Assembly: GCA_965202585.1 (NCBI GenBank)
Contig: OZ241831.1
Span: 29,698,001-29,762,000, forward strand
DNA: 64,000 nucleotides
Direction of reading: 5' to 3'
DNA from: Thalia democratica
Taxonomy: Eukaryota
Below the pieces are notes generated by a model. That model saw only the letters and a program-made list of their open reading frames with translations. It was not told where the DNA came from and searched no databases. The position numbers and the translations under genes are program-made. Positions within the stretch are counted from its first letter, which is position 1. Every line of letters starts with the position of its first letter. This document shows positions 3,770 to 6,429 of this stretch, in pieces.

Positions 3770-6429
3770 CTAAAACACGTTATGACCTTTACTTTCACAA
3801 TACTTTTCCTCGTCAACGCACCTTTTGCAGTGATGGTAGATACTGCCCATGTCTGAAAAAGAAAGTTGTTTAGTTTTTTTTTCAAAAAGTTTTAAAGGTA
3901 GGTTTATAACTTTTTAATTCAGTGAAATATAGCTAAAGTTTATAATTCAATATTTATCTTAATGTAGTTTTTGCGTATGAAAAAAACAAACTAATACTTT
4001 TACTAAAGTGTAATCAACTAAAAGACGAGTAGTTTTTTTTCAAATTAAACATGAGAAGTAATACTTAGCGCAGTTTTTATTAACGCAACTGGCTTTCCAA
4101 GTTTTACCTTGCAGTCTTTTGAAGAACTCGCAGGAAGTCACCTTGCAGTAAACTTTGCTGCACAGGCTCCCGGACCTCCTTGAAAATCCGCCCCTCTTGC
4201 CCCTCAACTCGTCCATTACCGCTTCCTCTAAAACTTTCAGCATTTTAGAAGAATTCGCCGGTTCTTCGCTGCTCAACGCGTTTAGACTGTCGTCAGTTTT
4301 TGTCTCGTCTTCTGTAAAGAAATGTATTTTTTTTTAGATACGATATTGCTCTTTTATTAGTTTGATTTAGATCAAGGGTTTTAATTTTAATTGTTGATGT
4401 GTTTCCTTATACTTAAAGTCTTATCATGTAAAATTAATAATAAACTTAAGGTTATATAAATCATTTGGTTTTAAACTTTAAATTTAATATAAACTTTTAT
4501 TTATCATAAAAGTTATATAAAGCCAAGATGTATTGTGATTTTTTTTGTACAAAAAGCTACTACTAAAAAAAAATCTGCCAATATAATTTAACTTATTTTT
4601 TGTGTTTTATTTCTCAAAAGTATTTTCTAAGCATAATTATGTCATGTATAAAACTATACAGTAGCTGAAAACCTTAAAATGTTTAAAATAATACTTAGTA
4701 TTATCAAAAAGTTATAAACAAAAGGCTTAGTTGTAATATATAAAAAATACTACATAATAATGTTTGAAAGTACTGAAAACAAAAAAAAAATAATACAAAA
4801 CTAATCAATAAAGAAAGTTTTCGGTGCATAAATATAAATGCAGTTTAAACGTACAAAAAAATAAAAGAAAGAGATTAATTTTGATGTAAATTTTCATCAA
4901 GGTTATTTTTCAATGCAATTTTAACTTTTAAGCAAAATGCAAATAGCTTCAACTTTGTTCACGTCAAAATTATTCTCACGGTTAATCTTATTAAACACAA
5001 AGCTATTTGCATATTGATTAGCAAAGCTGTTTGAAAATAACAAGTTGATAAAACCGCTTCATTGCTTCGAATTTTCGTTTCGTATTTTATGTAACTTTAT
5101 TATTTTAATCTAAATATTCACGTTAACCTATATAATGTTTTAATGTTTTATCATATAATGTCTAAACGTTGTTAGTTCTATTACTAGATACTAATATTGT
5201 ATGGGTTTATGTTGTACTTACTTAATATTAAGTATACTCTGACTATAACAGTGTGAGTTGGATTTAGTTGTACTTTACCTAAAAGTATTTTACTTTATTT
5301 AGCACTAAAACAAATAAAATATAAAAACCTAAACTTAAATCTTATTCGTACCGCGAAATTGTATTCTATTTTACAGCTGAGAACATTTTACTTAATGTTA
5401 TGTTTTTTAGCTTGCACAGAAACACAAGTGCTTGTAAAGCTGCTATAAAATATAGCCTACAAAACTTAATTAAACAAAACAAAATAAAGCAAACATACTG
5501 TAACAGAAAGGTTGAGGTGAGCTCCATTGACCTGTCACCTTGTCGCATTTGAAGAAGTCGTCTCCGATTAGAAGGTGCCCGTCGAAGCAAGCCACGTAGC
5601 ACCGGTACCCCCTGCTCGAGCAAAACAACTTGCCATTCTCGGGTATCTTCAAACTGGGGCACTCTGGTTAATGAAGTATAAACAGCTGATAAGGCTAAGA
5701 CATGTTATTATTTAATTGATCAACAGCTTGAAAGTGTGTTTATTTGTTCTACGTTGTCTTTCAAACTAGTAGATCTTTTTTTGATATCAGAATTAAATTT
5801 GCAAGTTTTTGTAAATGTATTGAAGCCATAACTAGTTTTAAACCATTAAAAAAAACGCAAATTATACAACGTTTAAAAATATTTCAAAAATGCTGTTTAG
5901 GTATGTTTTAAGCTATTTGATTTTTTAATAAAAGTTGTCTTAGTACATTTAAAAAAAGTATTAACATGGTTAAATAATAGTTTTCATTAATCTTTTTTTC
6001 ACAAAGTTTTTTAAATTAAAAAACAAAAATTTTAAATAAAGATATAAATAGAAATATTTTTCTCATTTTCCTAATCTATAGTATTTTAAACTTTCTCCTG
6101 AAGCCTTTGATTTCCAGCAGTTTACAGTTCTAGCTTGAGAAATAAGCTAATAAAGCGGCTTTAAAATATCAAAAATTAGAAATAAATTTTTAGAATTAGT
6201 TTTTAGCTTCTGTTGTCGTGAAAACTCTTAACTTAAAACTTTATTTTATTCAAGCTTGTAATTAAAATAACTAAAATTTTAGTTACTGTTTCATTAGAAA
6301 CATAACTTGTTTTTTACTTAACTAAATTTCTAATGCTCATTTGAAACAAAATTAAGACCTACCCTCCAAAGAGTTTGCTATGCACAAAGTGATTGACATG
6401 AGCACCACTAAAAGGTATTTTCCCGCCAT
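3770..6429 (-). CDS. Secreted precursor, 172 aa: signal peptide + Sushi/CCP domain + acidic spacer + RGKR + six-cysteine peptide
   Basis: Exons 6429-6363, 5663-5499, 4311-4108 and 3852-3770, all GT-AG with consistent phase 1. Translation: MAGKYLLVVLMSITLCIANSLE / ECPSLKIPENGKLFCSSRGYRCYVACFDGHLLIGDDFFKCDKVTGQWSSPQPFCY (CCP pattern C..NG..C..C..G..L.G....C...G.WS...P.C) / KDETKTDDSLNALSSEEPANSSKMLKVLEEAVMDELRGKR-GGFSRRSGSLCSKVYCKVTSCEFFKRLQ / DMGSIYHHCKRCVDEEKYCESKGHNVF*. A minus-strand AATAAA lies at 3635-3640. Confidence 0.85.

Follow-up and report, generated by a model that had tools for sequence, protein, structure and literature searches.

A Thalia democratica gene predicted to encode a secreted six-cysteine peptide precursor with an optional Sushi exon

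What kind of secreted product is encoded by the compact minus-strand locus at positions 3770 to 6429 of a 64,000-nucleotide stretch of the Thalia democratica genome, and is the Sushi module in its reading frame an integral part of that product? The stretch analyzed, hereafter the window, has a GC content of ~25% and comes from a genome of 802 Mb. In that genome 59 matches to the connexin family were found, many of them exon-sized; connexins are not known outside tunicates and vertebrates, so split connexin genes in an AT-rich genome point to a probable tunicate. The lineage markers GH6 and cellulose synthase had no match, which says little where genes are so rich in introns. A first-pass annotation described a four-exon gene with a signal peptide, one CCP/Sushi domain, an acidic spacer, an RGKR and a 55-residue peptide, and all of these are in the sequence, with frame, phases and Pfam in agreement. 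On the minus strand, the four coding exons lie at 6429-6363, 5663-5499, 4311-4108 and 3852-3770. They are separated by introns of 699, 1187 and 255 nt, every one of which is GT-AG and phase 1, and when joined they give a reading frame of 519 nt, equivalent to 172 amino acids and a stop. The GC content is 41-52% in the exons versus 23-24% in the introns, and the exons have a GC3 of 0.50-0.69. When introns 1 and 2 were each sampled 20,000 times, not one draw contained a frame free of stops over 162 or 201 nt, lengths that correspond to exon 2 and exon 3.

The predicted protein can be followed exon by exon along the minus strand. The coding part of exon 1 (6363..6429) carries the ATG, a predicted signal peptide at approximately residues 1-20 with a hydropathy peak of 2.7, and a phase-1 donor. 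Upstream of it are an initiator-like TCAGT (6474-6470) and, ~38 nt further, a TATA-like box, TATATAA (6506..6512), each a motif-scan match to consensus only. Exon 2 (5499..5663) holds a single six-Cys Sushi/CCP module and is symmetric, with phase 1-1 boundaries. The first part of exon 3 (4205..4311) encodes an acidic spacer spanning residues 78-113, which is followed by RGKR (residues 114-117; 4193..4204), a predicted furin/proprotein-convertase site. The predicted mature peptide starts in the last part of exon 3 (4108..4192), with an N-terminal extension that varies and then Cys1-Cys3, and exon 4 (3770..3852) supplies Cys4-Cys6, a C-terminal VF and the stop codon TAG. A candidate polyadenylation signal, AATAAA, is found at 3635..3640, ~130 nt past the stop, although the signal is weak and the region AT-rich. 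The cysteine spacing in the 55-residue tail is 4-4-15-2-6, as had been claimed.

A profile built from exon 3 alone returned three protein matches among 41 candidates. Two of these, P0006 (116 aa) and P0007 (152 aa), matched with E ~2e-5 and are encoded on JGI contigs of 901 and 968 bases. The start of P0006 is 41% identical to exon 1 and its end is 54% identical to exon 4, both being regions outside the query, and the two proteins match exons 1, 3 and 4 in gene order. The exon order 1-3-4 is therefore supported by contiguous homologues at the sequence level, while for exon 2 we only infer inclusion in the mRNA. The first-pass annotation had looked to homologues for the RGKR and cysteine pattern, and both keep R-x-K-R (as RKKR), all six cysteines and the final VF. 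Their cysteine spacing is 4-4-10-2-6 versus 4-4-15-2-6 in the Thalia gene, whose exon 3/4 junction carries five additional residues. The Sushi domain is absent from both full-length homologues. Because the two are near-identical (105/116), we note that the family is defined by a pair of proteins from one lineage, compared as protein, together with alleles.

When P0006 was compared with the genome, the peptide locus matched at E=4e-6, whereas five further places matched no better than E=0.32 and exon 4 matched at E=2. Since the Thalia locus is the only convincing genome match of P0006, P0006 and P0007 are likely orthologues of the gene described here. Four genome searches found one gene copy, a count that is a lower bound, as for all copy counts from such searches. 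Searching longer proteins with exon 3 identified one of 20 candidates, P0004, which represents an allele or a sister species and is a read-through frame. In P0004 and P0005 the RGKR is kept, with a 2-residue insertion directly after it. Three related DNA runs are contigs that read through the introns. An observation from the alignments is that P0007 has a 36-residue Ser/Asn/Phe-rich insert at residues ~25-60, at about the exon 2 position. As a Sushi domain this insert was rejected, with a local score of 16 where 20 shuffles gave 12-30; it may be intron sequence that was read through, or a further optional exon, and it hints at variation of the exon 2 junction within the family. Read from these comparisons, the locus is a real, conserved and apparently unannotated gene for a predicted peptide precursor, and the family layout is a putative signal peptide, a spacer, a basic site and a conserved peptide.

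The first-pass annotation did not recognize a precursor family for this protein and named a full-length match to a characterized family as one result that would count against it. We found no such match and no named relative in Pfam, the PDB, the ESM Atlas or 1.84 billion representative sequences. In Pfam, exons 1, 3 and 4, P0006, P0007 and A3 gave no match over the cut-off. Searching the PDB by sequence with exon 3, exon 4, P0006, A2 and A3 gave best values of E=0.36 or worse, and the ESM Atlas gave no usable match for exon 3 or the P0006 peptide. Profile A2, run against 1,835,955,588 representatives, had two matches at E<=0.001, namely P0006 itself and P0004. A search of longer proteins with exon 2 gave zero candidates. 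In metagenome contigs, none of 601 stretches was confirmed for exon 3, and the single stretch of 552 retained for exon 2 was rejected as a chance 13-residue match in an unrelated contig of 47% GC. The structure prediction that had been suggested as a check was run and yielded two low-confidence AlphaFold models (pLDDT 45.8 and 49.0), values too low to read a fold or disulfides from. In a literature search that was weak on subscription journals, we found no Sushi-bearing peptide precursor and no report on exon shuffling of phase-1 sushi in tunicates; PMC11359391 describes only a two-Sushi venom-duct protein.

What, then, might the peptide do? By region, identity of the Thalia protein to P0006 is 26/40 in the Cys core, 9/22 in the signal, 13/33 in the spacer and 5/13 between the site and Cys1, and the hydrophobic character of the N-terminus is conserved in P0006 by hydropathy and alignment. 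With cysteines excluded, the core is conserved at 20/34 positions versus 18/46 for the spacer, an excess that is not significant between the Thalia gene and P0006 (p=0.11). Between P0006 and P0007, however, there are 0/40 differences in the core versus 11/76 elsewhere (Fisher p=0.015). A DNA run of an allele, X3, provides a further comparison. It differs at 131 positions in all, and 8 of the 40 differences listed are exonic. Five of these eight are synonymous versus 27% expected under 4:1 transition weighting (p=0.04, from 40 of the 131 differences). The replacements among the differences listed are V65M, G115S and D159E, and G115S gives RSKR, so the R-x-K-R pattern survives. The core is only weakly cationic, with a net charge of +2 in Thalia and +3 in P0006 (GRAVY -0.63 and -0.04, respectively).

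Hormones and neuropeptides usually come from single-copy genes with a constant mature core of low charge and a drifting pro-region, while defense peptides and toxins more often form expanded families with variable mature parts. Because the gene is single-copy as far as found, the core is weakly cationic and the core is unchanged between P0006 and P0007, signaling fits better than an antimicrobial function. We therefore favor, with about even confidence, a model built from the sequence in which the gene encodes a secreted prepropeptide that would release a disulfide-bonded 55-residue ligand for a receptor, in the manner of a hormone or neuropeptide; in this model the Sushi exon is an optional add-on to the pro-region. 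The predicted signal peptide would be removed and disulfides, presumably three, would then form; cleavage after R-x-K-R by a convertase of the furin type would liberate the C-terminal 55-residue peptide, and the freed peptide would act as a receptor ligand. The Sushi exon, which comes after the signal exon and before the peptide exon, would be the pro-region add-on. The secretory-pathway processing steps invoked here are established biology, and the layout of signal, pro-region, convertase site and disulfide peptide is of a known kind; what is new is the peptide scaffold and the optional Sushi. A conserved six-Cys peptide, apparently single-copy and without a named match, offers a candidate for a new ligand scaffold, open to synthesis and assay.

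The first-pass annotation had placed the protein in a precursor layout shared by antimicrobial peptides, toxins and neuropeptides. The layout itself stands, with R-x-K-R and the six cysteines conserved, but the pattern of conservation makes the antimicrobial and toxin options less favored than signaling. It had also proposed that internal basic sites could give a two-chain product, an idea that did not hold up in the homologues: in P0006 and P0007 the RR at 122 and the loop KR at 142 are absent and the KR at 155 is KK. An internal cut giving two chains is thus not conserved and, judged from the alignment, may be lineage-specific.

A rather unlikely alternative, but one with points in its favor, is that the gene encodes a host-defense precursor, in which the acidic spacer would neutralize a cationic six-Cys peptide freed at RGKR, possibly folded as a turgencin-like nested disulfide ladder, and the Sushi domain would target surfaces or complement. 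The complete mature peptide is cationic (net +4/+6, pI 8.8-9.1), and the spacer of the Thalia gene has 10 D/E versus 4 K/R and a pI of 4.1. A cationic mature peptide behind an acidic spacer in the Thalia gene is an antimicrobial layout too, which counts against the signaling model. Set against this are the low charge of the core, the P0006 spacer, which is nearly neutral (-1), the single copy found, and a core without a single difference between P0006 and P0007 beside a drifting pro-region.

Comparison with known defense precursors bears on the same alternative. The BRICHOS-AMP precursors of polychaetes combine a folded domain, a dibasic or furin-type site and a C-terminal peptide, a layout similar to that seen here, and cathelicidins are named as a parallel in the part of the article available (PMC10745061). 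In a single worm, 13 transcripts encode peptides of 18-91 aa behind the one domain (PMC10745061, in part). That arrangement, a constant domain with diverse peptides, is the reverse of the pattern here, where the peptide is conserved and apparently single-copy and the Sushi is missing in homologues. Neither a BRICHOS nor a cathelin domain was found in our protein, only the Sushi.

Ascidians do make six-Cys antimicrobial peptides (PMC7024374 and PMC13208793, both available in part), although the St-CRPs are 18-19 residues long (PMC13208793). The first-pass annotation had noted a weak resemblance to the turgencins, and closer comparison reduces it further. Turgencins A and B, from Synoicum turgens and probably from the same subphylum, share with our peptide six non-adjacent cysteines and a cationic character (PMC7024374, in part). 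The spacing of turgencin B, counted by eye, is 3-4-7-2-3 versus 4-4-10/15-2-6 here, so two of five spacings agree, the Cys2-Cys3 gap of 4 and the Cys4-Cys5 gap of 2. The turgencin motifs CXMAC and KKXGG are absent from our peptides; turgencins are amidated and 35-36 aa long, whereas the peptides here end in VF without a C-terminal Gly and are 51-55 aa long (PMC7024374, in part). The turgencin disulfides are C1-C6, C2-C5 and C3-C4, and our models (pLDDT 46 and 49) are too poor to compare with them. The genes for turgencins are not characterized in the available part of PMC7024374.

Other tunicate peptides offer a looser comparison with the proposed ligand. PEP51 and CiEMa of Ciona are likewise lineage-restricted, without a vertebrate homologue (PMC10570924 and PMC10888236, in part), and the 20-residue PEP51 antigen and the CiEMa sequences as printed in the available parts of these articles show no likeness to our peptide by eye. 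The main text of PMC12441681, as available, mentions neither cysteine nor disulfide, and a published Ciona relative of the peptide may exist.

We then considered the Sushi exon. Exon 2 has the Cys/Gly/Trp/Pro pattern of a Sushi module and scores 22.8 bits against PF00084, above the cut-off of 20.7 (E=1.2e-4; residues 1-53 aligned to profile positions 1-56). Against the PDB it matches 33 sequences at E<=0.1, every one CCP-containing by name. Four other Sushi exons, recognized by their Cys/Trp pattern at three paralogous loci, are also flanked by a phase-1 AG and GT. Because exon 2 is symmetric, phase 1-1, and resembles these exons in its phase-1 sites, its module is of the kind moved by exon shuffling. 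Leaving exon 2 out does not shift the frame, and the resulting product has 117 aa, versus 116 aa in P0006. The view of the Sushi as the defining pro-domain, put forward in the initial description, has to be given up, with both full-length homologues lacking it, and since the homologues do without it, the Sushi is not needed for folding or release of the peptide. The Sushi fits an optional phase 1-1 module either way: exon shuffling may have added it in this lineage, or it may be a cassette of greater age that P0006 and P0007 skip, two histories that one homologous lineage cannot separate. Forms with and without the exon are a natural experiment on adding a folded module to a prohormone and on the role of that module.

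If it is included, the Sushi would most likely serve as a carrier or localization handle, which is a guess on our part. There is precedent for a module of this sort: vasopressin/oxytocin precursors carry neurophysin, and arthropod IDL-type precursors carry an LDLa module. In those precursors, as here, a signaling peptide and a small disulfide-rich module are split by a convertase site. Our precursor differs in that its module is a Sushi, is dispensable and precedes the peptide, which has six cysteines of its own, and we found no sequence relation to those precursors. A Sushi-type fold also forms the N-terminal peptide-binding domain of class B GPCRs (PMC2656815, in part). There it is a receptor ectodomain, whereas here a canonical six-Cys CCP lies within a ligand precursor, and by analogy it is conceivable that the Sushi binds its own peptide. 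Modeling the Sushi domain together with the P0006 peptide, a cross-species pair run without an alignment, gave a score of 0.00, which speaks neither for nor against binding. Taken to its furthest, the signaling model would make this a new tunicate hormone with a three-disulfide scaffold, in which a complement-control exon captured by exon shuffling is a built-in, neurophysin-like carrier or binding protein toggled by alternative splicing; we regard this as speculative and on the whole unlikely.

Alternatively, exon 2 could lie outside the mRNA altogether, as a Sushi exon that is stranded in intron 1 or seldom used, in which case the peptide gene would be real and the Sushi-plus-peptide protein would not exist. 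Both homologues lack the Sushi, and two further AG dinucleotides are found 22 and 31 nt upstream of the exon 2 acceptor, as this alternative would allow. We nonetheless consider it quite unlikely, given an intact frame, canonical phase 1-1 sites and a coding-like GC3 of 0.69, and given that two of the three exon 2 changes among the X3 differences listed are synonymous. From its open frame, its GC3 and these mostly synonymous changes, the exon looks maintained. A weak acceptor was considered and is not supported, as the pyrimidine content at exon 2 is 0.65, between those of exon 3 (0.53) and exon 4 (0.71). Nor is there another obvious host gene for the exon, because the next minus-strand gene ends near 16125 and plus-strand frames intervene. 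A reading as the tail of that neighbor, an ephrin-receptor-like gene, was rejected; a plus-strand exon-like region lies between the two.

The position of the basic site bears on a further alternative, in which the protein is secreted as an adaptor or a matrix component of the tunic, mucous net or gamete coat and is cleaved partly or not at all, with the Cys-rich tail as a binding domain and the basic stretch as a flexible linker. Sushi modules are usually protein-binding units, and a protein as rich in Lys as P0006, with its seven dibasic pairs, can contain polybasic stretches by chance. We consider this doubtful, because R-x-K-R is kept in place in every variant seen while its neighbors change, including through the 2-residue insertion that follows it in P0004 and P0005, and because the homologue would then be little beyond a signal, a spacer and a tail.

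Least probable, and in our estimate very much so, is a small inhibitor of serine proteases, loosely antistasin-like, whose canonical loop would lie at Cys2-Lys-Val: the Cys1-Cys3 stretch is invariant, the core can presumably be likened to antistasin-type leech inhibitors, and the 4-4-10-2-6 of P0006 shares three of five gaps with 4-3-10-2-1, the commonest antistasin spacing in the genome, but there is no match to PF02822, with its pattern C-x4-C-x3-C-x2-G...D-x2-G-C-x2-C-x-C, and an antistasin profile built from 17 of 19 genome matches (two duplicates dropped) scores the two cores at -5.9 and -1.9 bits where its own members score 37-51. Membership of that family was rejected, with Cys-fixed shuffles reaching the core scores in 972 and 625 of 1000 cases. 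As an observation in its own right, the genome contains these 19 antistasin-domain matches (L019-L037) on several contigs, several of them by eye just upstream of astacin-like frames, which suggests an expanded antistasin-astacin protease family.

Several other features lie in the window. Head-to-head with the peptide gene, on the plus strand, are exon-like open frames at 11787-11970 and 13402-13779, the latter without a Pfam match. The ephrin-receptor-like gene, at 16000-22015 on the minus strand, has multiple exons that encode repeats of the Ephrin_rec_like family (PF07699) along with an acidic domain flanked by Cys, a layout that we take to be SVEP1-like. Its apparent stop is near 16125, and a hydrophobic stretch follows directly in frame. 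On the plus strand, 34733-46876 holds an RPAP3-like gene with TPR repeats and RPAP3_C. Within it, related repeat-like stretches border a frame of 236 codons (37508-38215) that may be left over from a transposon. A gene for a secreted protein with a short collagen and an F5/8 type C (discoidin) domain lies at 51455-53158 on the minus strand, and a reverse-transcriptase-like fragment, with a YVDD motif identified by eye, is at 54688-54963 on the plus strand.
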